Assembly: GCA_031432155.1 (NCBI GenBank)
Contig: JASJPP010000020.1
Span: 1-41,798 of the forward strand
Source: Patescibacteria group bacterium
Lineage (GTDB): Bacteria; Patescibacteriota; Minisyncoccia; UBA6257; UBA9933
DNA length: 41,798 nucleotides
Direction: 5' to 3'
Of this stretch, positions 1-36,977 are shown one piece after another. The translations under genes and the position numbers were made by a program. Below the pieces are notes generated by a model, which had not been told where the DNA came from, did not search any database, and worked only from the letters and a program-made list of their open reading frames with translations. Numbering within the stretch: position 1 is the stretch's first letter; each line of letters starts with the position of its first letter.

Positions 1-24
1 GTTCGAGTCCTCTCCCGCGCACCA
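1..24 (+). tRNA. 3' end of a tRNA (probably tRNA-Leu), truncated by window start
   Basis: GTTCGAGTCC T-arm, acceptor 3' strand CCCGCGC, discriminator A and encoded CCA. The anticodon is outside the window, so identity is inferred. Confidence 0.8.
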
Positions 25-31
25 GAATTTG

Positions 32-206
32 ACTTTGCGCGAACCTTTTTTGAACGGAACTGACGGCGCGCTTCGCGCGCCAAACTGAATGCTCGGGCGG
101 GCAAAAAGGAAGGGGGTTGGGGGGAAGGAATTTTTGCCCGCCCTCGCTTTCCGCCGCCGCCGAATTTCGTATTTCGCTTTGCGAAATGCGCCGCCAAGAA
201 AATTTG
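32..206. repeat. Left inverted-repeat arm of cassette 1
   Basis: 32-54 = reverse complement of 2916-2938 (23/23); 91-170 = reverse complement of 2823-2902 (79/80); looser match to about 206. Confidence 0.95.
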
Positions 207-263
207 ATTTGTCTTAAATTTTGGTGTAACATCATAATATCAACAGAGAAGTGGATACTTCAA

Positions 264-287
264 TATAATGTTAATACCAAGCTGGTA
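264..287 (+). promoter_or_regulatory. -10 box and putative XRE operator
   Basis: TATAAT at 264-269; TACCA-N3-TGGTA palindrome at 275-287, just before the XRE ATG at 290. Confidence 0.4.
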
Positions 288-289
288 AT

Positions 290-496
290 ATGTCAAACAA
301 CCAAAATTTAGCAAAAAACATTGAGCGATTACGGAAAACCAAAGGGCTTTCGCAGGAGAGGTTGGCGAGATTGGCCGATGTTGCCAACAACACGCTTATC
401 AAAATGGAATCGGGAGAAAATAAAAATCCAACACTTGAAACCTTAAAAAAGGTGGCGAAAGCCCTTGAGGTTAGTGTTGATGAGTTAATAAATTAG
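290..496 (+). CDS. XRE/Cro-C1 family HTH regulator (68 aa)
   Basis: LRKTKGLSQERLARLADV...ESGENKNPTLETLKKVAKALEVSVDELI is a typical HTH_3 pattern. Confidence 0.92.
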   Translation: MSNNQNLAKNIERLRKTKGLSQERLARLADVANNTLIKMESGENKNPTLETLKKVAKALEVSVDELIN

Positions 497-502
497 AAAA
501 CT

Positions 503-1099
503 ATGGGATTCTTTTCAAAATATAACGAGAAAGAAAAAGCACTTCTTGACTTGTATGTTCAGCAATTTCAAAAAATGGGTATCCCCGAATCATCTAAAAT
601 GGCGGAAAACTTGCTTGATGAAGCAATAAAGGAAGCGAAGAAAGTTGCTCTCCCACCAAATGCTGGGGACAAAATTCTTGAGAAAGAAAAAACCGATGAA
701 AACACACACAAGGTATTAGAAAAGAAAAGGCGAGAGGGGGTACGCGATGAAGATATAAAATGGTGGTGGAATTTGGATAATGTTGAGAGAATGATGATGT
801 TAAAAGTTGATGAGTTTCATCGTTTAGCTTTACACATCAAATGTCGTCAAGACGATGGTTTATCAGTTGAACGGGCGGCGGAACAAGTTAGGAAGCATCA
901 CCCTATTTTTGGTAATCCAGAAGACACAACCCACACACAAGGAGACGACCGACCGCTACCAGAAGAACTAAAAGACAGAATCAATATTTATATTGAAAAT
1001 CAATTTATAAATAATTCTGAAAAGTTCAAAAAAGAAATTGAGCAATCAACAACTTTCAACGCGTTGGTTAGGAAAGAAATTCGCGCTGGTAAACTTTAA
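503..1099 (+). CDS. Hypothetical protein (198 aa)
   Basis: Long ORF, operonic with the XRE gene. Confidence 0.8.
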   Translation: MGFFSKYNEKEKALLDLYVQQFQKMGIPESSKMAENLLDEAIKEAKKVALPPNAGDKILEKEKTDENTHKVLEKKRREGVRDEDIKWWWNLDNVERMMMLKVDEFHRLALHIKCRQDDGLSVERAAEQVRKHHPIFGNPEDTTHTQGDDRPLPEELKDRINIYIENQFINNSEKFKKEIEQSTTFNALVRKEIRAGKL

Positions 1100-1102
1100 T
1101 TT

Positions 1103-1702
1103 ATGACAGCCAATAAGAAAATAATTACATTTCTGATTATCGCCGCAATTATAGCAGGTGGATATTACTTTTTCTTTTCAAATAAAAATACCGAGGAAAG
1201 CACACAAACTACAAAGCAAGAAAAGGTTTCAAAAGCCGACATTATCGCAAAAGAACTTGCAGATACATACCAAGCAACTATCGGGTGGGAAGAAAATCTG
1301 AATTATACTTTGCAGGCACAAGAGCGATTGATTACTAGCAAACCAACTCTGTTTAGGGGTTATGTTGATGACATATTCAAACGCGATGGAAAAAACTTTA
1401 TTCGGTTTTCGTCTTCGTTTTTAAGCTCGGCTGATTATGTACTAGAACTTGAATGTGCGCAACAGGTTGTAGATAAAATCTTTGCGCAAAAACCAGATAG
1501 TAAAGACTTTCTGAAATTTTTTGACGAGTACGCCATCGTGGCAAATATACAGGAAATAACCAAACCTATTTTTGCGCTAGAGGGCTCCGCGTTTTCTGAA
1601 GATGAGGTTGAAATCAATATTGAATCCTCTAACTTATTTACTGCAAAAGGGATTTGCGTGGATGTTGTTTATATTGGCGATGATGAACTATTTAACGACT
1701 AA
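1103..1702 (+). CDS. Hypothetical membrane-anchored protein
   Basis: N-terminal TM segment (IITFLIIAAIIAGGYYFFF); 3-bp spacing from the previous gene. Confidence 0.8.
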   Translation: MTANKKIITFLIIAAIIAGGYYFFFSNKNTEESTQTTKQEKVSKADIIAKELADTYQATIGWEENLNYTLQAQERLITSKPTLFRGYVDDIFKRDGKNFIRFSSSFLSSADYVLELECAQQVVDKIFAQKPDSKDFLKFFDEYAIVANIQEITKPIFALEGSAFSEDEVEINIESSNLFTAKGICVDVVYIGDDELFND

Positions 1703-1707
1703 TCAAT

Positions 1708-1911
1708 ATGCAAAATAAATTTTTCAAAATTATTCTAATCATCGCTGTTATTTCTATTGCCTTTTTCTCACTAACTTATTTCACGAGGACGGTTATTGAT
1801 GTTGGTTGTGCAAAAACAGGGAAACCGGAGGATGGTTGGAAGCGTCGTTTTGCAACAGTAAATTGTTGGTATTGGGAAAGGACAATCCAACTTCAGCAAA
1901 ATTTTAACTAA
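1708..1911 (+). CDS. Small membrane-anchored hypothetical protein
   Basis: N-terminal TM, two Cys, tight operon spacing. Confidence 0.65.
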   Translation: MQNKFFKIILIIAVISIAFFSLTYFTRTVIDVGCAKTGKPEDGWKRRFATVNCWYWERTIQLQQNFN

Positions 1912-1913
1912 CT

Positions 1914-2453
1914 ATGGACCAAGAAATTATTACAAACGAAGAATCCCAGACCATAACACTTAAAAAAGAAAGCTTCTTTAAGAAAATTTTTAAAGGGGTT
2001 GGTTTCGGTGGTCTAGTTGTGGGTGGTGGGTTTCTCTATATCTCGTTTACTATTCTACAATTTTTGTTCGTTGCTTTTGCGGGCTTATCAATGATAGGGT
2101 TGGCAATTTCATTATTTTCCGAAGGTTCAATAATTTGGGGACTGGTTGCCCTCTTTATAGGAACTCCTATAGCAATCGGTCTTGCTAGTTATTTCTTTAT
2201 ATTTTTCTTATTTCTATCAATTATCGCATTGATAATTTGGGGGATTATTTATATTTTTGGATTTAATGTTTCATTTGGCAGTGTGTGGGATGGGATTTGG
2301 CTAGTTATAAAAATATTGATTTTGGTAGGTATGGCCTTCTTTGGGATTAGCTCATTTATAGAAGCAATAAAAAAGAAAAATGTGATACTCTTTTTCAAAG
2401 AAAATTGGTTTTACATTCTCATTTTCTTTTTTCTTTTTTGGTTGTTTTTCTAA
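1914..2453 (+). CDS. Multi-pass membrane hypothetical protein
   Basis: About 5-6 hydrophobic segments. Confidence 0.8.
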   Translation: MDQEIITNEESQTITLKKESFFKKIFKGVGFGGLVVGGGFLYISFTILQFLFVAFAGLSMIGLAISLFSEGSIIWGLVALFIGTPIAIGLASYFFIFFLFLSIIALIIWGIIYIFGFNVSFGSVWDGIWLVIKILILVGMAFFGISSFIEAIKKKNVILFFKENWFYILIFFFLFWLFF

Positions 2454-2465
2454 AATATAAGAATT

Positions 2466-2792
2466 ATGAAAGCGAACAAAAAGAAAAATATCATTCTCGG
2501 TATTGCTACACTCTTTTTGTTCGCTGCTTTATTTAATGGCTGGCCTTATGGATTTTTTACTCTTTTGCGGTTTGTTGTTTTTGTGGCGTCAACTTATATT
2601 GCGTGGATGGCGTATGAGGCGCAAAAAGAAAAATGGATTTGGATTTTTGGATTTCTCGCGGTTCTTTTCAATCCGTTTATCGTTATTCATCTTAACCGCG
2701 AAACTTGGGGTGTTATTGATTTGATTGTTGGGATATTTATGATAATTTCGGTGTTCGTGCTAAAGTTAGAACGCAAGCCAAGCACGACTTGA
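2466..2792 (+). CDS. Small 4-TM membrane protein, DUF6804-like
   Basis: WPYGFFTLLRFVV...LFNPF..IHL.R..W..ID pattern. Confidence 0.65.
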   Translation: MKANKKKNIILGIATLFLFAALFNGWPYGFFTLLRFVVFVASTYIAWMAYEAQKEKWIWIFGFLAVLFNPFIVIHLNRETWGVIDLIVGIFMIISVFVLKLERKPSTT

Positions 2793-2938
2793 AATTTTAA
2801 GCGGCGCGCCAGTTTCACTGGCACGAAATTCGGCGGCGGCGGAAAGCGAGGGCGGGCAAAAATTCCTTCCCCCCAACCTCCTTCCTTTTTGCCCGCCCGA
2901 GCGTCAAGAATTCTTTTCAAAAAAGGTTCGCGCAAAGT
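2791..2938. repeat. Right inverted-repeat arm of cassette 1
   Basis: Reverse complement of 32-206 (see left arm). Confidence 0.95.
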
Positions 2939-2957
2939 GTATAATTACAGCACCAAA
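2917..2957. repeat. att-like end motif, copy 1
   Basis: 41-bp direct repeat with 4537-4577 (38/41), ending in the tRNA-end core GCACCA. Confidence 0.9.
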
Positions 2958-2990
2958 ACGAAACTTAATCCTTTTTCAGATATTTTTTGA

Positions 2991-3095
2991 TGGGCTTCCA
3001 TTGCGGAAGCCCATTGTTTGGAAAATAAAAAACCTATTAGTTGGATTCTGGCGCGTTTGTTTGACGAAATCCGAATCTTTTTTGAGCAAATCTGA
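2991..3095 (+). pseudogene. Relic of a serine recombinase 3' end / inverted attP-like junction
   Basis: Reads WASIAEAHCLENKKPISWILARLFDEIRIFFEQI*, resembling the WRCLLDKVRNYFEQNPND* tail of the element at 37-41 kb. Confidence 0.5.
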
Positions 3096-3097
3096 CT

Positions 3098-3173
3098 CGC
3101 TCGGGCGAGGCGGAATTCCCCCTGCCCCCCCCTCCGCCGCGCCCTCGCGGGAGGCCAGAATTTTTTCGCCGCC
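3098..3173. repeat. Left inverted-repeat arm of cassette 2
   Basis: 3125-3173 is the exact reverse complement of 4385-4433 (49 bp); imperfect match extends to 3098/4462. Confidence 0.95.
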
Positions 3174-3186
3174 TTTCATTTATATC

Positions 3187-4065
3187 TTACCCCCTGACGA
3201 CGTCGACCAAGTCGGCCCAATCAACGACTTCCGCAGGATACGAATTGAGTTCGTAGTTATCTATTTCTACGGTTACCGTCCGGCTTTCTTCCCCGAGCTT
3301 CTGCCTTGTAAAATCCGCGTTGCGGAAGCAAAAGTAAGGACGGACAGCAGGCGAACCACCACGCACCGGTAAGGCCGGTAAGCGAGTGAGCGAAGCGGCG
3401 TCGGAGACCAACATGCAGTACCCGTCGAACCCGATCTCAGAATGCACAGCACTATATACCCCCGTTATTTCAATAGGGCCTCGTAGAGTTATTCGTGCGT
3501 TCTCTGGCCCGATTTTCATCATTTTCGGATCACTGGAATATTGCCCGGTATTAAATGGTGCGGCATTCACGACAGTCATTGCGCCGAGGATATCTCCCAC
3601 CGATACAAAAGCAGGGCTTGCGTCGTTCTGTATGCGACTGATTATTTCATCAACCGATAGGTCATTGCCGAGCCGAGCGCGTAAATTATTGAGCAATGTT
3701 TTGTGGCCTTTCTCCAAAATTGCTTCTTCAAATGTACTTGCATATCCTGTTTGCACACGAATAAAAGTAAGTTTGCCGTCTGAATAGTCATATTTACCCT
3801 CGCTGGTTTCCACTCCGTTAAAATCAGATTCCATAAGGCCGGGGAACGCTTGCAAGTACATCGGCGCGGTAAAGCCGCTGTCAATCGGTTGTCCGAAGTT
3901 TTCTACTACGAAACTTTGAAGTTTATTTGTAAACTCGGCTGACTTCTCGGTAGCAACTCCGTCATGAGATTTAGGAAATACGGCATATCTATTCAGCGCA
4001 ACGAACGCAAAAAGCAAAATTACGGCGATGCCCAAAACTATTAAAACAATAATTGCTTTTTTCAT
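3187..4065 (-). CDS. Hypothetical membrane-anchored/exported protein (292 aa)
   Basis: N-terminal TM; lies downstream of the XRE gene. Confidence 0.8.
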   Translation of the reverse strand: MKKAIIVLIVLGIAVILLFAFVALNRYAVFPKSHDGVATEKSAEFTNKLQSFVVENFGQPIDSGFTAPMYLQAFPGLMESDFNGVETSEGKYDYSDGKLTFIRVQTGYASTFEEAILEKGHKTLLNNLRARLGNDLSVDEIISRIQNDASPAFVSVGDILGAMTVVNAAPFNTGQYSSDPKMMKIGPENARITLRGPIEITGVYSAVHSEIGFDGYCMLVSDAASLTRLPALPVRGGSPAVRPYFCFRNADFTRQKLGEESRTVTVEIDNYELNSYPAEVVDWADLVDVVRG

Positions 4066-4095
4066 CTAAAATATTTTCTATTCACGGACATAGAT

Positions 4096-4302
4096 TTACT
4101 TCAACAACTTATCAACTGAAACATCCAGCGCATTGGCGAGCTTTTCTAAAACCACCAAAGTAACATTTACCTTGCCACCCTCAATCGCGCTCATATAGCT
4201 TCTGTCCATATCAATAGCTCGGCACATGTCGCCCTGCGACATACGCTTTTTCAATCGTATGCGCTTGATGTTCTCTCCTAGTTTTTTGGAAATTTGGACC
4301 AT
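4096..4302 (-). CDS. XRE family HTH regulator (68 aa), C-protein-like
   Basis: LGENIKRIRLKKRMSQGDM...MDRSYMSAIEGGKVNVTLVVLEKLANALDVSVDKLL. Confidence 0.92.
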   Translation of the reverse strand: MVQISKKLGENIKRIRLKKRMSQGDMCRAIDMDRSYMSAIEGGKVNVTLVVLEKLANALDVSVDKLLK

Positions 4303-4384
4303 ACTTATATTACCACTTTACCAACTATTGCGCTACTCCTCAATATGGAGGTATAATCCCATGTATGGTTTCTTTATTTGAATT

Positions 4385-4462
4385 GGCGGCGAAAAAATTC
4401 TGGCCTCCCGCGAGGGCGCGGCGGAGGGGGGGGTGTGGGGGGAATTCTACCACGCCCGAGCG
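4385..4462. repeat. Right inverted-repeat arm of cassette 2
   Basis: Reverse complement of 3098-3173. Confidence 0.95.
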
Positions 4463-4536
4463 TAGCCCCGCCGCCTGCTCTGTCAGGAGCAGAGCCGAGC
4501 AAAACATTCTTTTTTCTTAATTCGTTCAGTTTCCGC

Positions 4537-4577
4537 TCAAAAAGGGTTCGCGTAAAGTGTATAATTACAGCGCCAAA
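4537..4577. repeat. att-like end motif, copy 2 (island/chromosome boundary)
   Basis: Direct repeat of 2917-2957; inverted relative to 32-54. Confidence 0.9.
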
Positions 4578-4593
4578 TGTAACTTTGTCGGAA

Positions 4594-4622
4594 TTGACCA
4601 TTGTTATATATGGTGGTATTAT
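4594..4622 (+). promoter_or_regulatory. Sigma70-type promoter, probably leaderless
   Basis: TTGACC-N17-TATTAT with TGn extension; ATG 6 nt downstream at 4629. Confidence 0.6.
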
Positions 4623-4628
4623 ATCAAT

Positions 4629-4820
4629 ATGCTCGATAAAATTTTCGAAGTTTTTAGAAAGGTTGATCGGACGATAAACACAGTGGATGGAATGCAACGT
4701 ACCGCCGAACGGGTGGAATATCAGGCGCAAAATTTGAAAGGCGGCTCCAGAAATTTGAAATGGATTATTTTGGCGGTCATTTTGGCAATCGCCGTTATTT
4801 ACGCCGTTTGGGGACAATAA
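4629..4820 (+). CDS. Small C-terminally anchored membrane protein
   Basis: Start moved to ATG 4629 on the basis of the promoter; C-terminal TM. Confidence 0.65.
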   Translation: MLDKIFEVFRKVDRTINTVDGMQRTAERVEYQAQNLKGGSRNLKWIILAVILAIAVIYAVWGQ

Positions 4821-4827
4821 TTTTTTT

Positions 4828-5271
4828 ATGAGCGAATTCAATCAGTCATCAAACGAGACTGTGCCGGAACCGCCGGCGCCGAAAATTTCCATCAGAACTA
4901 TGGAGTCGGACATTAAATCTTTGGAAACAAGCGGAGGAGAATTTTTATCGCCCGAACCGTTTATTTTCCGACAAAAAGAAGCGACGGAGGAAAAAAACGA
5001 ACCGCGGGTGGAGTTGAATCTCGGCAACATCCCCGGCTATACCGGACCGGAAAAATCCGTTTTTTCTTCTTCCGACGCGTCAATAGCCGTTTCGGAAGAA
5101 AAAATCGCGGAAGAAAAATCGCCGATTACTATTAAAGAAGAAGAAATTTCAAAAAACAAAATTATTTTAACGGTAATCGGCGTAATCGCGGCTGCCGCTG
5201 TTTTCTGGATGATCGGATATTTTGTGGTTTATCCGTGGCTTTTTTCCAAAGAGATGCCGCCGGTGAATTAA
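4828..5271 (+). CDS. Hypothetical membrane protein with disordered N-terminus
   Basis: SIRTMESDI motif, acidic/Pro-rich region, C-terminal TM. Confidence 0.75.
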   Translation: MSEFNQSSNETVPEPPAPKISIRTMESDIKSLETSGGEFLSPEPFIFRQKEATEEKNEPRVELNLGNIPGYTGPEKSVFSSSDASIAVSEEKIAEEKSPITIKEEEISKNKIILTVIGVIAAAAVFWMIGYFVVYPWLFSKEMPPVN

Positions 5272-5619: not shown

Positions 5620-7167
5620 ATGGCTAAAAACTTGGCAAAAGTTTTTTCGGCCGAATTGGATGGGATTGACGCCAGACTTATTGAGGTGGAGACCGACATC
5701 AACGTCGGTCTCCATTCTTTTAATATCGTCGGCTTGGCCGACAAGGCGTTAAACGAAGCCAAAGAACGCGTGAGTTCGGCCCTAAAAAATACCGGCGTCA
5801 AACCGCCGACAAAAGAAAATCGCAAAATTACGGTTAATCTGGCGCCGGCGGACGTAAAAAAGACCGGTTCCCAATACGATCTGGCTATCGCAGTCGGCTA
5901 TTTGTCGGCGACGAAACAGATTAAAAATTTTGAAACCGGCGACAAAATTTTTATCGGCGAGCTTTCTTTGGACGGCAGCTTAAGGACGGTTAACGGAGCT
6001 TTGAGTATTGCCCAGATGGCCAGGAAGCTAAAATTCAAATTTCTTTTTTTACCGAAGAAAAATGCCGTTGAAGCGGCGGTTATTGGCGGAATCAAAATAA
6101 TCGCCGTTAACGACTTGAATGAATTGATTGATCATCTGGAAGAAAGAAAAAAAATAGACGTTTGGCCGACGACGGTTTTTAACGGCGGATATAATCCGTC
6201 GTGGACGGACATTTCCGGCGTTAAGGGACAAAAAAACGTCAAAAGAGCTTTAATGGTGGCTGCGGCCGGCGGGCATCATATTTTAATGAGCGGTTCGCCC
6301 GGCGCCGGTAAAACAATGATGGCTCAGGCTTTGATTTCGATTTTGCCGCCTCCTTCGCTGGAAGAAGCCGTTGAAATCACCAAAATTTACAGCGTTGCCG
6401 GCTTGCTTAAAGAAAACGATTTTTTGAATTTTCGTCCGTATCGAGCTCCCCATCATACGGCTTCGTCCATCGCCGTTATCGGCGGCGGCGGCAATCCGAA
6501 GCCCGGGGAAATCAGTTTGGCGCATCGCGGCGTTTTGTTTCTGGACGAAATGCCGGAATTCCGCCGCGATTTGTTGGAGGCCTTGCGTCAGCCGCTGGAG
6601 AGCGGCGATGTTCGAATTTCCCGCGTTAAAAACAGTTTGGTTTTCCCGGCGAGATTCTTGATGGTGGCGGCGATGAATCCATGCCCTTGCGGTTATTTTT
6701 CCGATCCGGAAAAAGAGTGCCGCTGTACCGCCAATGAAGTTTTCCGTTACCAGAAAAAAATCTCCGGTCCTTTAATTGACAGAATTGACATTCAGATTGA
6801 AGTACCGCGCGTCAAAACCGAAGAATTGATGGAAAAATCTTTTCAAGACGACGGCGGTGAAAATGAAAGCGAAGAGATCAAGAAATTGGTTTTAAAGGCG
6901 AGGAAAATCCAAAAAGAACGTTTTGCCGGCAAGGGGATTGGTCTTAATTCGGAAATGGATTCGAAAACCGCGGATGAATTGATAATTCTTGATAAAAGCG
7001 AACAAGAGTTTTTAAAAAAAGCCATGGCGAAATCTTTCATTTCAGCCAGGGGTTATTACAGGATTTTAAAAATCGCCAGAACCATTGCCGATCTGGAAGA
7101 ATCGAAAAGGGTTAAAACGGAGTATTTGGCCGAGGCGTTTCAGTATCGGTTGAGAGAAAAAGAATAA
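5620..7167 (+). CDS. comM: YifB/ComM Mg-chelatase-like AAA+ ATPase
   Basis: ITVNLAPAD, GSPGAGKT, RAPHHTAS, GEISLAHRGVLFLDE, AMNPCPCG, ISGPLIDRID. Confidence 0.93.
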   Translation: MAKNLAKVFSAELDGIDARLIEVETDINVGLHSFNIVGLADKALNEAKERVSSALKNTGVKPPTKENRKITVNLAPADVKKTGSQYDLAIAVGYLSATKQIKNFETGDKIFIGELSLDGSLRTVNGALSIAQMARKLKFKFLFLPKKNAVEAAVIGGIKIIAVNDLNELIDHLEERKKIDVWPTTVFNGGYNPSWTDISGVKGQKNVKRALMVAAAGGHHILMSGSPGAGKTMMAQALISILPPPSLEEAVEITKIYSVAGLLKENDFLNFRPYRAPHHTASSIAVIGGGGNPKPGEISLAHRGVLFLDEMPEFRRDLLEALRQPLESGDVRISRVKNSLVFPARFLMVAAMNPCPCGYFSDPEKECRCTANEVFRYQKKISGPLIDRIDIQIEVPRVKTEELMEKSFQDDGGENESEEIKKLVLKARKIQKERFAGKGIGLNSEMDSKTADELIILDKSEQEFLKKAMAKSFISARGYYRILKIARTIADLEESKRVKTEYLAEAFQYRLREKE

Positions 7168-32929: not shown

Positions 32930-34610
32930 TTATATCCTGTTGAGCTCTTTATAAACTTCGATAATCGGCTCTGGAATATCCTCGACCCTGATATTCGCAC
33001 TGGAATACTCGCCTTTATATTCGTTCTTGCCCCAACTGAAAATATACAAAGCCGTCGGCAGATTTTTCTTTTCCAGTTTGGCAATCAACTCTGCTAATTT
33101 CGCCTTATCTTCTTTGAAGTAAATCGCCACGAGCTTGCCTTTCCCCTCAAAAATCTGCCACCAGTCATTTTTCTCAACTTCATTGAGCGCGTCCTCGCGG
33201 ACGGCAATCATTTCCCCAGCTTGGTAAGTAATGCGGATTTTCGCCTCGTCCGGCACTTTATGGATTTGCTCAATGTCTACGAGATCGGTTTGGTAGTGGA
33301 AAAGATTGCTCGGAATACCAGCGACCTTTTCGCTCTTTTTATTCTTGTATCCGTTAATGACGGCCTTTATTCGCGGATAGCAAACCGATTCGGCAATCCC
33401 GCCGTTTCCGCCATTGTTGTTTTCGTTGTTTGTGCAGAGAATAAACTTGCGATTGCCGCCGTCAATTTTGTTCATTTCCAAAACGGCGTGTCCGGTTGTA
33501 CCAGACCCAGCGAAAAAGTCCAAAACATTTGCGTGTGGACGCTCGCCAACAACAGCAAACAAACAGTCGTAAACTGTATGGAGTGATTTTGGATAATCAA
33601 AATCGGAGCTAGGAACAATCTCGCGTAAAAGTTTTGCCCCATATTCATTAGCGTCGTATTTTTTATCAACCCAAACCGTCCGATACTTTCCAAAATCCTT
33701 ACCGATTTGAATTTCTTTGCCACTTCTACCGTCCGTTACACGCAAGAGGTGTTTTATTTTTTCCACGCTTTGGCGAGCGTAACGCCATTTTCTCTCAATA
33801 CCCTCATTATCTATCGGATAAATGTAAATTCCGTCTTTTTTGTTTTCTTCTCTATCTGGGTGAATATCGTTCGGCACAACATTACCAAATCCGATAACTT
33901 CTCCATCTTTGATTATTATTGGATAAAAACAATTGCGAGCGTCAGTTCGCAATGACTCGCCGCCATTATCTCGCAATCCTCTCCAGCTAACATCGTCCCC
34001 ATCAATAACCCTGTCGCCGATTGTTTTTAGATTTTTTGGTATAACAAAAACTGCATATTCGTGAGTATAAGAAAAGTTCGTGCCCTGTACTCCACGAGGA
34101 TTATGGACAATCGTAATCGTATGTTGCTCGTGTGCTGGAAATAATTGCTCAATCAAAACTCCCAAATGTGCCTGTTCGTTATCATCAATCGCACAAATTA
34201 GAACACCGTCGTCTTTCAAAAGATTTTTCGCCAAATTTAGGCGGTGGCGCATAAACGAGAGCCACTTGCTGTGGCGGTATTCGTCGTCTTTGTCTACATA
34301 GTCATTGTTATATTTCCAGTGTATTGTACGGCGGATCAATGTAGATGAGATCAATGTTCTTTTTGTGGGTGTAGTTGAGAACCGAAAGCGCGAGATAGTT
34401 ATCGCCCTCAATCATTAGGTTGTTCGGATACGCCCCGTCCAGATCAAGGCGGTTTTTGATGACCTCTTTCAGAACGGGTACTTGAGTTTTTGATTGTTCA
34501 ACGACATCCTCCGCTTTGTCCTCAAAAACCAGCCCAAGATTGTTTTTCTTGAGTTTCCTGATTTGAGCTTCCAACTCTGCCATTTTCTTTTGTAAATTAT
34601 TGTTCGCCAT
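32930..34610 (-). pseudogene. mod: Type III Mod N6-adenine methyltransferase, frameshifted near 34320
   Basis: IEGDN...IYIDPPYNT in one frame; WKYNNDYVD..D.YRHSKWLSFM, FDYPKS, LDFFAGSGTT continue in another. Confidence 0.88.
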
Positions 34611-34612
34611 AA

Positions 34613-34795
34613 TTATTTTGTGCTTGTGTTCTTTAGAAAACGCTCGAACTCACCTTTTGCAATACGAAATTCCTTGCCAATTTTATGAGCCTTCAGCTTC
34701 CCGGCTTTTATGTACCGATATATGGTCATGACATTCAGGCTCAACTTTTCAGCGAGTTCATACGCCGAGTAAAAATCCCTCTCGTTTTCTTGCAT
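34613..34795 (-). CDS. Excisionase-type HTH (HTH_17) DNA-binding protein
   Basis: YSAYELAEKLSLNVMTIYRYIKAGKLKAHKIGKEFRI. Confidence 0.88.
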   Translation of the reverse strand: MQENERDFYSAYELAEKLSLNVMTIYRYIKAGKLKAHKIGKEFRIAKGEFERFLKNTSTK

Positions 34796-34801
34796 ATAGC
34801 T

Positions 34802-34830
34802 ATAATACTTTACTTTTCTTTACAAATCAA
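34802..34830 (-). promoter_or_regulatory. Sigma70-type promoter of the HTH-mod-res operon, probably leaderless
   Basis: TTGATT-N17-TATTAT, 6 nt before the ATG. Confidence 0.55.
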
Positions 34831-34975
34831 CAAAATGCCTGGTTTCATCCTAATTTAATAGGTTATCCACAATAATTTGTTGAAAGTTTGCAAAATATTC
34901 TATACTATGATAGCATGTCTTTAAAGTCGAATTATAGGCATATATATAAACCAATAATAGCAAGTAAAAACCATT

Positions 34976-36187
34976 ATGATTCACTCCTTTTCTTGCAAGA
35001 ATTTTTACTCATTTGGAGAGCTGGGATTTCTTAATTTTGTCGTGAACGAAAATGCTCCCCAAAATAATGGGTATTTTAAGACAGGCTCCGGTGTTCGCCT
35101 GTCTAAAGTCGAAACCGTCATTGGTCCTAATGCATCAGGAAAAACCAATCTACTTAAGGTACTGCCGTTTCTGAAATGGATGATAGTTGATTCATTCAAT
35201 TCAAAACCGGAGGATCTAGTAGTTGTACAGCCATTTGCTTTTGGCGACGCAAAAAAAGAGCCGACCGAATTGTCGGTGGTGTTTGAAATGGACGGAAAGA
35301 TTTATACCTATAGTTTTACGATCGTGCAGGAACGAATTTTGTCTGAAAAGCTAGAACGCACAACCCTTGTTAAAAAGAAGAAAGGTACTCAAAAAGTATT
35401 CTCGCGCAAATGGAATTTCGATCAAAACCGATACGACTTTGAAGGAGAAAACTTTGAACTACCTAAGGGGTTTGAAAATCTATTACGCTCTAATGCGAGC
35501 GTCGTAGGTTCAGCTGCGCGATTAAATCATCAGGAAAGCCAGAACATTACAAAATATTGGCAAAAAATTGAAACGAATGTCGTCGAAGCTGGATGGACTG
35601 GAGATAATCTTTTACCAATTAAAACCCCTCAATGGTTTGAAGCTCTGATCTTCTATAGCAAAAACAAGGAACTCAAAGAAGAGGCGGAGAAATTATTGTC
35701 TCGTTTTGATTTGGGCTTAAACGGAATTACTTTCAAGGAACAGAAAGACAAAGATGGCCTGACAATAAAAGATGTCCAAGCCAAGCATTTGTTCAATGGC
35801 AAGGAACATTCCCTTTCGGTGATCTACGAATCGTCCGGCACAAAACAACTCTTTGTGCTTCTAAAAAGCATCTTAGCGGCATTGGCAGGAGGAGGCATTG
35901 CCGTTATTGATGAATTCGATGTAAATCTACACCCGGAAATGGTGATAGCTCTTTTTGATTTGTTCATACACCCGGAAACCAACCCCAATAATGCCCAATT
36001 ACTTTTGAGCACTCATAGCCACTTGCTCTTAAGTAAGCTCGACAAATATCAAATTGTATTAGTGGAGAAAAACGAATCCGGAATGAGCGAAGGATGGCGA
36101 TTGGATGAAGTATCAGGCGTTCGTTCTGACGACAATTACTTTACCAAATATATTGCCGGGGCTTATGGCGCTGTTCCCAAAATCTAA
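34976..36187 (+). CDS. AAA_21 family ABC-type ATPase (RloA/AbiLi-like)
   Basis: KNFYSF, GPNASGKTN, ESSGT, IDEFDVNLHP, QLLLSTHS, Y..G.YGAVP. Confidence 0.88.
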   Translation: MIHSFSCKNFYSFGELGFLNFVVNENAPQNNGYFKTGSGVRLSKVETVIGPNASGKTNLLKVLPFLKWMIVDSFNSKPEDLVVVQPFAFGDAKKEPTELSVVFEMDGKIYTYSFTIVQERILSEKLERTTLVKKKKGTQKVFSRKWNFDQNRYDFEGENFELPKGFENLLRSNASVVGSAARLNHQESQNITKYWQKIETNVVEAGWTGDNLLPIKTPQWFEALIFYSKNKELKEEAEKLLSRFDLGLNGITFKEQKDKDGLTIKDVQAKHLFNGKEHSLSVIYESSGTKQLFVLLKSILAALAGGGIAVIDEFDVNLHPEMVIALFDLFIHPETNPNNAQLLLSTHSHLLLSKLDKYQIVLVEKNESGMSEGWRLDEVSGVRSDDNYFTKYIAGAYGAVPKI

Positions 36188-36202
36188 TCTCTCCCATGAA
36201 CT

Positions 36203-36739
36203 ATGTCACGAACGAATCCTTGTAAGAAAAAACGTCGATCTGCCAATAAAACACTTCTTATGTTTGGTGAAGGGCTCGGCGAGGAACTCTTCCTAAAACA
36301 TCTTCGTGGATTATATTCCCATGATAGCGGTGTGGCGGTGACTATACGAAACGGCAAAGGAGGAACTGCGACCGATATCGTCTCTAATGCTAACCGAGAG
36401 CCTGGAGATTTTGATCGCAGGATCGTTATTTTAGACAACGACAAAGACAAACAAGAAATGCAAAGAGCTCGAACTGAAGCAGGCCAGAAGGGTATAGAGC
36501 TTATAGAAAACTCTCCATGCCTCGAGGCTGTGTTATTAGCAATCTTGCGAGACGGAACTTCCTTTGCTAACAAAGCCTCTGCTTGGTGTAAAGATGAATT
36601 TGAATCTCATTATCTCGATAAACGTAAAAGGACAGAGATTATGGAATATGAAAAAACTTTCCCTAAATCGCTATTGGATCAGCGTCGGAAAAACGTCTCG
36701 GAGCTGAACCAATTAATTAGTCTGATGGAAGGAAAATAA
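36203..36739 (+). CDS. RloB-like (AbiLii-like) TOPRIM protein
   Basis: LMFGEG..EE, ILDND, NSPCLE motifs; directly follows the AAA_21 ATPase. Confidence 0.75.
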   Translation: MSRTNPCKKKRRSANKTLLMFGEGLGEELFLKHLRGLYSHDSGVAVTIRNGKGGTATDIVSNANREPGDFDRRIVILDNDKDKQEMQRARTEAGQKGIELIENSPCLEAVLLAILRDGTSFANKASAWCKDEFESHYLDKRKRTEIMEYEKTFPKSLLDQRRKNVSELNQLISLMEGK

Positions 36740-36773
36740 AAGGTCGATATTATTAATCAAGGGAATAAATACC

Positions 36774-36977
36774 ATGCCTAGATACATACGCAACGCAAAT
36801 AAGCACTGGACTCCAACCGAGGAACACAAGTTGACGCAACTGGCTCGTCAGAATACGCCAACGCGCGTAATCGGCCTTAAGCTTGGTCGACCAGTTGGAG
36901 GAGTGCAGTCAAAGGCAAGCGAGCTTAATGTGAGCTTACGACCATACAACCGTTCGCCCTACAATCGCAAAAAGTAA
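36774..36977 (+). CDS. Small basic protein with Myb/GcrA-like HTH
   Basis: WTPTEE..L..LA..NTPTRVIGLKLGR....V..KA. Confidence 0.7.
   Translation: MPRYIRNANKHWTPTEEHKLTQLARQNTPTRVIGLKLGRPVGGVQSKASELNVSLRPYNRSPYNRKK

Follow-up and report, generated by a model that had tools for sequence, protein, structure and literature searches.

The tRNA-Leu(gag) locus

The stretch of DNA analysed here, referred to as the window, is contig C20 (41,798 nt, GenBank accession number JASJPP010000020.1) of genome G000, from an ultra-small groundwater bacterium of the Patescibacteria (653 kb in 49 contigs, 99.9 % complete by marker genes). The region of interest lies at its left end, where two small units, each an operon led by a gene for an XRE-type regulator and enclosed by its own inverted repeats or arms, follow the 3′ end of a tRNA-Leu(gag) gene and together occupy bases 25–4598. 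Bases 1–24 (plus strand) are the tRNA 3′ end, and the same 24 nt close contig C40, on which the complete gene is found (1103–1188) with an rluD-like gene upstream. Joining C40 to the window gives the order rluD, tRNA-Leu(gag), p4828, a dksA-like gene and comM, and the junction is supported because G003, a genome from another genus of the same family, has the same gene order. The tRNA ends in GCACCA (19–24, plus strand), the discriminator plus CCA, and this hexamer, here core c1, recurs as three further cores, c2 (GCACCA, 2950–2955, plus strand), c3 (TGGCGC, inverted GCGCCA, 3049–3054, minus strand) and c4 (GCGCCA, 4570–4575, plus strand).

Core c1 is followed by a 7 nt stub, GAATTTG (25–31, plus strand), and then by the left arm of unit 1 (32–200), which contains an outer box (32–54), a small hairpin (66–82), the main hairpin with a G-rich loop (95–143) and a palindrome (170–186). 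The palindrome is conserved among relatives and lies directly upstream of a promoter-like site preceding XRE1 (290–496, plus strand), which encodes a 68 aa XRE/Cro-type helix-turn-helix regulator (Pfam HTH_3, E=8e-16) and starts 90 nt from the left arm. Five further ORFs of 198, 199, 67, 179 and 108 codons follow on the same strand (503–2792); several encode hydrophobic segments, and only the last belongs to a Pfam family (DUF6804). The right arm (2797–2938) is an inverted copy of the left one with a different inner hairpin. The inverted repeats are 91–170/2823–2902 (80 nt, 99 % identity) and 32–59/2911–2938 (28 nt, 93 %). The unit closes with the first copy of a 41 nt end motif (2917–2957, plus strand), made up of a box, a GTATAATTACA spacer and core c2.

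A 93 nt spacer, X (2956–3048), in which a 25 nt hairpin (2990–3014) is flanked on each side by 34 nt, separates the GCACCA of c2 from the inverted TGGCGC of c3. The left arm of unit 2 (3055–3173) begins there with a GTTTGTTTG spacer and contains a box (3064–3087) and a hairpin (3098–3149). The operon is on the minus strand and consists of a gene for a 292 aa membrane-anchored protein (3187–4065), which belongs to a Patescibacteria-only family with no known domain and is conserved in its C-terminal half, and XRE2 (4096–4302; 68 aa, XRE/Cro-type, HTH_3 E=6e-11), which adjoins the right arm (4385–4558) at a distance of 83 nt. The inverted repeats of this unit are 3118–3173/4385–4440 (56 nt, 95 %) and extend, at 73 % identity, over 3098–3149/4411–4462. 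The second copy of the end motif (4537–4577, plus strand) includes core c4, so that unit 2 is fully enclosed by inverted cores, TGGCGC and GCGCCA. It is followed by a 23 nt stub, AATGTAACTTTGTCGGAATTGAC (4576–4598, plus strand), after which the promoter of the next host gene begins.

Much of this had been noted in an initial annotation of the window, and its account of the tRNA end, of the GCACCA and GCGCCA unit ends, of the shared 41 nt motif and of an XRE-led operon within GC-rich inverted repeats in each unit is borne out by the coordinates and domain matches above. The inverted 23 nt at 32–54, the inverted third core and the minus-strand genes of unit 2 are additional to it. The units are also recombinase-less, as had been stated. 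A Pfam search found no Resolvase or Recombinase domain in bases 1–4600, and none of the 7 non-XRE ORFs of the two units has a recombinase or transposase domain. Bases 1–4700 had no DNA match in a phage collection, and a search of bases 1–5200 against Rfam gave two weak matches far below the gathering scores, neither within the arms.

The end motif resembles an attachment-site arm

The two copies of the end motif are direct repeats with 38 of 41 positions identical (within-genome BLAST E=9e-11). The box within it occurs four times (32–54, an inverted copy of the inner 23 nt of the motif, 2916–2938, 3064–3087 and 4534–4558) and is homologous to DNA encoding the tail of large serine recombinases (LSRs). 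The likeness that the initial annotation had seen between the translated motif (DFARTFFE) and the recombinase tail DKVRNYFE encoded at 37–41.8 kb holds for the DNA itself, in which 15 of 24 positions agree by our count. In the GTATAATTACA subtype the box and the W codon are in different frames, and so they are in an LSR-bearing copy (L089/L113), which suggests that conservation acts at least partly on the DNA, as would be the case for a recombinase-binding half-site.

When the 19 nt heart of the motif was used to scan one genome per species, it was found in at least 120 stretches, the great majority from Patescibacteria by record title, against an estimated 17 or so chance matches in the whole collection. 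Several of the contigs carry labels from outside the candidate phyla radiation (CPR), among them Gammaproteobacteria, Verrucomicrobia and Nanoarchaeota, and may be mis-binned or chance matches. Among the 80 loci listed (82 instances), an upstream GTTCGnGC box was present in 79, the exceptions being L131, L174 and L177. Conservation ends immediately after ACAGCA, and the next two letters are CC in 36 of the 82, CA in 22, CT in eight, TT in seven, TA in four and others in five. This limit corresponds to the tRNA discriminator position, the meeting point of element and target DNA.

The predicted link between the motif, tRNA genes and recombinases was also found among the listed instances. An LSR gene begins within 600 nt after the motif in five (L105, L113, L149, L170, L179), a convergent tRNA gene lies within 400 nt after it in eight (five Leu, two Arg, one Tyr) and a same-strand tRNA gene follows in four; for 11 instances less than 600 nt of downstream sequence was available. 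In L179 the order is motif with GCACCA, arm, LSR gene, and tRNA-Leu(gag) on the opposite strand. The LSR arm of the L179/L170 type begins AAACTAACTTTG and its target is tRNA-Leu(gag). From this context, the 41 nt motif appears to be the recombinase-binding arm (P arm) of an attachment site.

Organisation of related elements

Comparison of 20 retrieved loci with paired arms revealed a recurrent two-module layout. Starting from a tRNA 3′ end, an arm of about 130 nt, the LSR gene and an inverted arm are followed by an inverted copy of the last 5–8 nt of the tRNA; then come an arm of 130–370 nt, an XRE gene, cargo and an inverted arm, and finally a core and the flank. The full layout was seen in the window at 37.1–41.8 kb, on contig C28, and in the relatives L066, L073, L077, L078, L082 (two elements), L070 and L072. 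In all seven junction pairs compared, the internal inverted core matched the end of the tRNA at which the element lies (CCGCCA, CCACCA, GGAGCCA, CCGCCA, CCACCA, CACCGCCA and CGGAGCA). The 3′ end of the LSR gene faced the tRNA, or the visible 3′ fragment of the tRNA, in each of the ten elements where one was seen, and the XRE gene adjoined the internal junction in eight of nine LSR-linked modules with an XRE gene, the exception being L077, where the cargo is flipped.

The element at 37.1–41.8 kb in the window has this plan in mirror orientation, and its tRNA-Ser(gct) is on the next contig, C21. Its cargo module (37156–40120) is bounded by inverted repeats (37156–37372/39902–40120) and contains GIY-YIG/T5orf172, glycosyltransferase and GlpM-like genes as well as an XRE gene (39613–39816, minus strand). 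The LSR module (40113–41798, plus strand; inverted repeats 40113–40232/41632–41751) contains an ORF (40252–41796, plus strand) with Resolvase, Recombinase and Zn_ribbon_recom domains. The boxes in the arms, the XRE-first layout and the cores at tRNA ends are common to this element and to the units at tRNA-Leu(gag), which belong to the same family, as had been proposed.

At nine of nine junctions, the open frame that comes out of the LSR-side arm stays in phase across the core and terminates with a conserved tail, xVRTxFEQNPx followed by a stop codon. Examples are W-RCLLDKVRNYFEQNPND, W-RCFLDEVRTFFEQNSE and W-SLYQKVRTHFQQNPE, each ending inside the cargo-side arm, and the frame at the internal junction duplicates the last 40 or so codons of the LSR. 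The window LSR itself has no stop codon before the contig end and runs antisense through the entire tRNA-Ser(gct) on C21. The conserved tail and stop of this element are found only at the internal junction (40062–40244, minus strand).

These features would fit a tentative broader view, to which we assign a low likelihood, that the family is a serine-recombinase counterpart of the integron. Each module border would be a copy of a single attachment (att) site, in alternating orientation, and recombinase modules, LSR-less spacers such as X and XRE-led cargo modules could be chained, flipped and exchanged at tRNA ends, with a switch in the form of the LSR built in, in that the conserved tail is read only across a joined site and a tRNA-antisense extension is read when the element is integrated. 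The array at tRNA-Leu(gag) would then be a frozen snapshot of a module chain. At L080 (contig C40 of genome G007), an XRE cargo module is enclosed by an inverted repeat that takes in 25 nt of the 3′ end of tRNA-Arg(ccg) (3105–3129/5605–5629), and the internal copy there therefore resembles an inverted attL rather than attP.

Two serine recombinases, both LSRs, were found in genome G000, the one in the window and one on C28 (643–2082) that is 45 % identical to it. A single tyrosine recombinase is encoded on C14. Arms of the same kind are present on at least seven other contigs, and 12 inverted-repeat-bounded modules on eight contigs make up about 40 kb or 6 % of the genome, a sum of the listed repeat pairs in which family membership was checked for part of the pairs. 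Only two of the 12 include a recombinase gene.

The two units are probably stranded remnants

The evidence is best explained if bases 25–4598 are a decayed composite of modules from Patescibacteria-wide small integrative islands that were inserted by LSRs at the discriminator/CCA end of the tRNA, a reading to which we give a probability of roughly 70 %. The chain would consist of the tRNA-Leu(gag) with c1, the 7 nt stub, cargo 1, from which the inverted core and spacer at the left end have been deleted, c2, X, the inverted c3, cargo 2, c4, the 23 nt stub and the host promoter. Modules would have arrived by LSR-catalysed attP × attB recombination with a crossover at or beside the tRNA discriminator, the LSR genes would have been lost afterwards by deletion, and present gain, loss and exchange of cargo may occur mainly through recombination within the conserved arms. 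The third position of the core, A in the tRNA-side c1 and G in c3 and c4, is as expected if c3 and c4 derive from the site that the element itself carried and the crossover took place 3′ of this base.

At the right end, the 23 nt following c4 are identical at 21 positions to arms that precede LSR genes aimed at tRNA-Leu(gag) (L155, L170 and L179), and the likeness stops after base 4598. This short segment appears to be the remnant of a deleted recombinase module. XRE2 reads away from the stub-bearing junction, as in L170. With the LSR-arm stub and XRE2 both at its right junction, unit 2 is best read as a cargo module in mirror orientation to the tRNA. Its end spacers differ, being GTTTGTTTG on the left, as in the 37 kb element and the module on C19, and GTATAATTACA on the right, which suggests past recombination between elements of two subtypes.

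Unit 1 is flanked by direct cores, c1 and c2, and the element-side half of its left site is cut to about 7–15 nt. The inverted repeat begins only at base 32, and the 17 nt of inverted core and spacer predicted from the right end are missing. They are retained in the other cargo modules examined (unit 2, the 37 kb module, those on C19 and C28, and the junction-pair set). The stub GAATTTG resembles the opening letters of the sequence that follows tRNA-Leu(gag) in G008 (GAATTTGATTTTCGG) and the motif in L158, in both cases the start of a recombinase-side arm. It looks like a scar left when the recombinase-side module was deleted together with the internal core. A possible alternative for this end is integration of a single-module circle with a symmetric site.

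The initial annotation had regarded the units as non-autonomous cassettes stacked like those of an integron and mobilised in trans. Spelled out, such a model would have intact cassettes in the same orientation, the newest nearest the tRNA, which a recombinase encoded elsewhere in the genome would at present excise and re-insert at GCRCCA. The direct GCACCA at both ends of unit 1 and the P arm common to both units (38 of 41 positions) agree with this, and successive integration that pushes older elements outward is described for tycheposons (10.1101/2020.12.28.424599) and for the ssrA islands of Dehalococcoides (PMC3146451). The X-covering contig in runs X14 and X18, which matches the window only from base 2950, might represent an allele free of unit 1. 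However, like-oriented stacking does not hold for unit 2, which is bounded by inverted cores, is set apart from unit 1 by X, has a right junction of the internal-junction type with an LSR-arm stub and is placed in mirror orientation by the position of its XRE gene. Unit 1 keeps some 7–15 nt of a recombinase-side arm in its left half-site, the resident LSR elements have other arms and cores, and the one polymorphism seen does not lie at GCRCCA. Movable, like-oriented cassettes thus seem unlikely.

The sites of the two resident LSRs are CCAACAAACA.CCGCCA at tRNA-Ser(gct) and GGTATAATGA.CCACA, for which the adjoining tRNA was read as tRNA-Ala(ggc). No LSR with a GTATAATTACA arm was found in the 49 contigs of the assembly. 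Because the resident arms and cores differ, because the assembly has no LSR with the matching arm and because the left half-site of unit 1 is cut down, we infer that both units are stranded and would not be moved by the two resident LSRs. A cognate LSR arriving on another element could act on c4, which is apparently a complete site.

The spacer X

The central 57 nt of X recur at 95 % identity in three metagenome contigs, where they lie between a tRNA-Thr(ggt) ending in CTCCA and a TGGAG followed by a cargo arm, and both flanks of X are significantly alike in these contigs. In genome G017 tRNA-Leu(gag) and its CCA are followed by an X-like hairpin and then by a different gene, read as recG. The arrangement in G017 had suggested that X is the native terminator of tRNA-Leu(gag), a reading that was abandoned because the whole 93 nt unit with matched flanks also follows tRNA-Thr(ggt) in the three metagenome contigs. 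By its position and recurrence, X is a portable LSR-less occupant of the place of a recombinase module, and it probably supplies a terminator to the tRNA. The left flank of X showed a weak likeness to the L089 arm (p=0.04).

Gain, loss and transfer

Of 301 genomes sampled from the order, 79 contained a match to the arm at 25–215, with up to 97–100 % identity across families, whereas the neighbouring comM gene is 63–74 % identical. XRE1 is 94 % identical in protein sequence to the XRE regulator of an LSR-linked module (L074) in a genome of another family, and the DUF6804 gene has a 78 % identical counterpart in G003 at a different locus. The arms and the XRE gene have therefore spread horizontally. 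On contig C34, arms 98 % identical to those of unit 1 enclose unrelated cargo.

The initial annotation had pointed to related genomes as the place to look for sites without the units, and G003 and G017 indeed lack the interval 25–4598 at the corresponding locus. In G003 the tRNA-Leu(gag) gene ends in GCGCA followed by CTATTATT, with the p4828 homologue about 400 nt further on. Relative to these genomes the interval is an insertion; both are from other genera and the exact ancestral borders cannot be read from them.

This distribution bears on the idea that the repeats are merely host regulatory hairpins, such as bidirectional terminators or insulators around accessory operons, in a region that is immobile. 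The arms do lie at operon ends, and X holds a terminator-like hairpin directly after the tRNA gene. An immobile region would nevertheless not be expected to have arms 97–100 % identical across families next to a housekeeping gene at around 70 %, the same arms around different cargo (C34 and unit 1) or an orthologous site in G003 and G017 that lacks the interval, and a simple terminator scan does not flag the arms. We consider this explanation very improbable.

Population data were drawn from 13 sequencing runs in four studies that contain at least 79 % of the sampled words of bases 1–5200, four of the runs being compared as assembled contigs. In run X4, contigs cover 443–2830 and 3144–4207 without a difference from the window. 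An assembly artefact, namely a chimeric join at the repeated arms, had to be considered as the window begins at a contig end and the arms, which are longer than the 55 nt overlap of the assembly, break contigs. The representation of the interval in the 13 runs, the identical X4 contigs and the recurrence of the architecture in dozens of independent genomes make it the least credible of the explanations. Run X4 also contained the joints 149/2917 (opposite strands), 59 to 343, 64 to 148, 122 to 169 and 202 to 2801, which probably stem from other copies of the arms, for example that on C34. Depths in this run (466 for unit 1, 561–568 for unit 2 and 646–720 for the flanks) are one figure per contig and were not used.

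One polymorphism was observed. A single contig in each of runs X14 and X18, which are from one study, joins base 3124 to base 4453; that from X18 is 471 nt long with one mismatch. In this allele, from a near-identical strain, cargo 2 and the inner arms are gone, and X, the outer arms, c3, c4 and the flank are kept. Cargo 2 is thus present in some strains and absent from others. The initial annotation had predicted that variation would break at GCRCCA; here it breaks inside the hairpin arms. The X14 contig over X matches the window from exactly base 2950, the first base of c2, and begins with 153 unlike bases; it may stem from an allele in which tRNA-Leu(gag) adjoins X directly.

The strain-level break could also be taken to mean that the hairpin arms are the active ends of cassettes of the terminal inverted repeat (TIR) or hairpin-targeting kind, similar to mobile insertion cassettes (MICs) or miniature inverted-repeat transposable elements (MITEs), and that a non-LSR enzyme would insert them into the loop of a conserved GC-rich hairpin or remove them from it. 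In the strain without cargo 2 one short hairpin is left, to which each arm contributes its outer half. Arm pairs without cargo and hairpins standing alone are found on C34 and C25, 21 hairpins share a loop on different stems, and the arms are 95–100 % conserved across families. Against this, the modules have no target-site duplication, the flanks of unit 2 (GGATTC/AATGTA) and those of unit 1 showing none beyond the core, no transposase domain is found in the cassettes, and the arms are tied to LSR genes, with part of each arm encoding the LSR tail. Central deletion of long palindromes is moreover an ordinary route of decay. Active hairpin ends therefore appear improbable, and slightly more so than intact cassettes moved in trans.

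Several points weigh against the view that the interval is a decayed composite of LSR-inserted modules. A model based purely on att sites does not predict a break within the hairpin arms, where the sole polymorphism seen has its joint. In the four runs neither a circle junction nor a contig joining the tRNA to X (24/2956) was found; assembled contigs drop rare variants. The reading of bases 25–31 as a deletion scar rests on 7–15 nt of likeness, and the mirror orientation of cargo 2 downstream of X is a further difficulty. X was also considered as a collapsed pair of LSR arms, and this was rejected. Its 34 nt flanks are not inverted copies of one another (p=0.39), and mere collapse of an LSR module would therefore not account for X.

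Hairpins, regulators and cargo

The main hairpin of the arms has a loop of the form G5-6 T(T/G) G5-6 (C-rich on the other strand) carried on stems of different sequence. It was found in 21 distinct copies, each with at least 11 paired positions, including those at 95–143, 3103–3144 and 37287–37327 in the window, on C19, C25 and C34, and at many other loci. Formal covariation analysis (MAFFT/RNAalifold, 17 hairpins) was set aside because stems of unequal length were misregistered; compensatory changes were found in three of nine predicted pairs. Perfect palindromes can also reflect the way in which they arose, and the list of 21 hairpins would not by itself prove selection.

In a PADLOC search the XRE proteins matched control proteins of restriction-modification systems and capH-type regulators, with E values down to 1e-15. 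We infer that they are operon controllers, like restriction-modification control proteins, rather than recombinases; they might also serve as recombination directionality factors. For the non-XRE cargo proteins, NCBIfam gave one sub-threshold match, PADLOC none, and a protein atlas scored 0.76 at best, no more than a lead, so that no function could be assigned. A protein identical to the 292 aa one of unit 2 is encoded on a 593 kb contig. An outward promoter in the 41 nt motif was also considered. The candidate TTCAAA-18-TATAAT (2916–2945) scores 10/12, the region contains 15 such sites against 11.2±3.7 in shuffled sequence and the second copy was not flagged, and the candidate was dropped.

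Other modules in the same genome were recorded. A 5.7 kb module on C19 (42–5777), upstream of C40 and the window, has 332 nt inverted arms that are 98.8 % identical, a 71 aa XRE regulator as its first gene and, by eye, sugar-metabolism genes as cargo. It adjoins tRNA-Ala(cgc) (5784–5855), and the palindromic hairpin after this tRNA is repeated at the far end of the module as a 42 nt repeat (CCACACACACCCCC...GGGG). An XRE-led module on C25 is closed by a 26 nt copy of a tRNA 3′ end and a terminator. The full tRNA, which was not called by ARAGORN, is on C37. The end of C25 and the start of C37 both flow into C1 in the assembly overlaps, and this looks like duplication of the tRNA end or a fork between occupied and empty sites. 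Beside the 37–41.8 kb element, bases 32930–36977 of the window contain defence-like genes encoding an AAA_21/AbiEii-type ATPase (E=1e-31) and an RloB-like protein (E=2.5e-7), together with a methyltransferase-like ORF named from its translation alone.

Comparison with known systems

In the full-text literature, which did not extend to subscription journals or supplementary files, no description of such elements in Patescibacteria was found, and the family is apparently widespread and undescribed. Phage-type large serine integrases, such as those of A118, Bxb1, phiC31 and SPbeta, are one point of comparison. The window LSR shares with them the Resolvase, Recombinase and Zn_ribbon_recom domains, the attP × attB logic and a short common core. 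It is only 24–27 % identical to any phage record, and the att site here lies inside the 3′ end of the LSR frame, with a second, inverted copy of the site kept in the element.

Integron cassettes are likewise small modular gene units at a fixed site with hairpin-forming repeats at their borders. However, no IntI-type tyrosine recombinase is encoded at the locus (the sole tyrosine recombinase in the genome is the one on C14), each unit has its own regulator, and the repeats are inverted pairs rather than one attC per cassette. The arms are similar in form to the TIRs of MITE and MIC cassettes but are not accompanied by target-site duplication; the search for transposase domains covered the ORFs of the two units. 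Segments inverted by serine invertases of the Hin/Gin type offer another comparison. Inverted cores flank unit 2, no recombinase is adjacent, and the cargo is flipped in one of nine LSR-linked relatives (L077); orientations held by a minority of cells would not show in assembled contigs.

Integrative elements are known to decay in this way, leaving remnants without a recombinase that accumulate side by side next to a tRNA or small-RNA gene. One parallel is the tandem accretion of cis-mobilizable elements (CIMEs) at the att sites of integrative and conjugative or integrative and mobilizable elements (ICEs and IMEs; Guedon et al. 2017, PMC5704250), in that a CIME arose by decay of an autonomous element and adjoins elements or remnants of the same family. 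CIMEs derive mostly from elements with tyrosine integrases, whereas the enzyme here would be an LSR, and the units at tRNA-Leu(gag) have no conjugation functions and are bounded by 80–370 nt inverted arms and inverted cores. Like CIMEs, they have lost genes for integration and transfer. Retention of attL and attR is less clear as at least one half-site looks truncated.

The ssrA islands of Dehalococcoides, with DsiB of the CcrB family, and the staphylococcal cassette chromosome (SCC) are a second parallel (McMurdie et al. 2011, PMC3146451). A serine recombinase of about 540 aa lies by attL, the genome is streamlined, and several islands follow one another behind a small-RNA gene, some of them without an integration module. 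Those islands have 20 bp direct repeats, lack both long inverted arms and an inverted site in their interior, target tmRNA or rlmH rather than many tRNAs, and have a six-gene integration module in place of a single LSR. The tycheposons of Prochlorococcus (Hackl et al., 10.1101/2020.12.28.424599) are also tRNA-seeded islands in tiny genomes in which older elements are pushed outward, with degenerate remnants and heterogeneity of presence and absence in populations. In contrast, 910 of 937 use tyrosine recombinases and many carry replication genes, and the available passages of that account do not mention modules with inverted arms. The Patescibacteria elements are set apart by their long inverted arms, by an inverted site inside the element, by the position of a site within the recombinase frame, and by LSR-less spacer modules.

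Implications for gene flux in Patescibacteria

Few mobile elements have been recognised in the ultra-small Patescibacteria, yet strains differ in their accessory genes. With its site arm in at least 120 species-level stretches, the family may be a main route of gene flux in the CPR. The decayed array at tRNA-Leu(gag) represents a natural deletion series in which three parts prove separable, namely arm-bounded cargo, the recombinase module and the LSR-less spacer, and it shows that arms can persist after cargo has been lost. The linked LSRs appear to have sharply defined targets at tRNA ends and could become integration tools for organisms that are at present without genetics.

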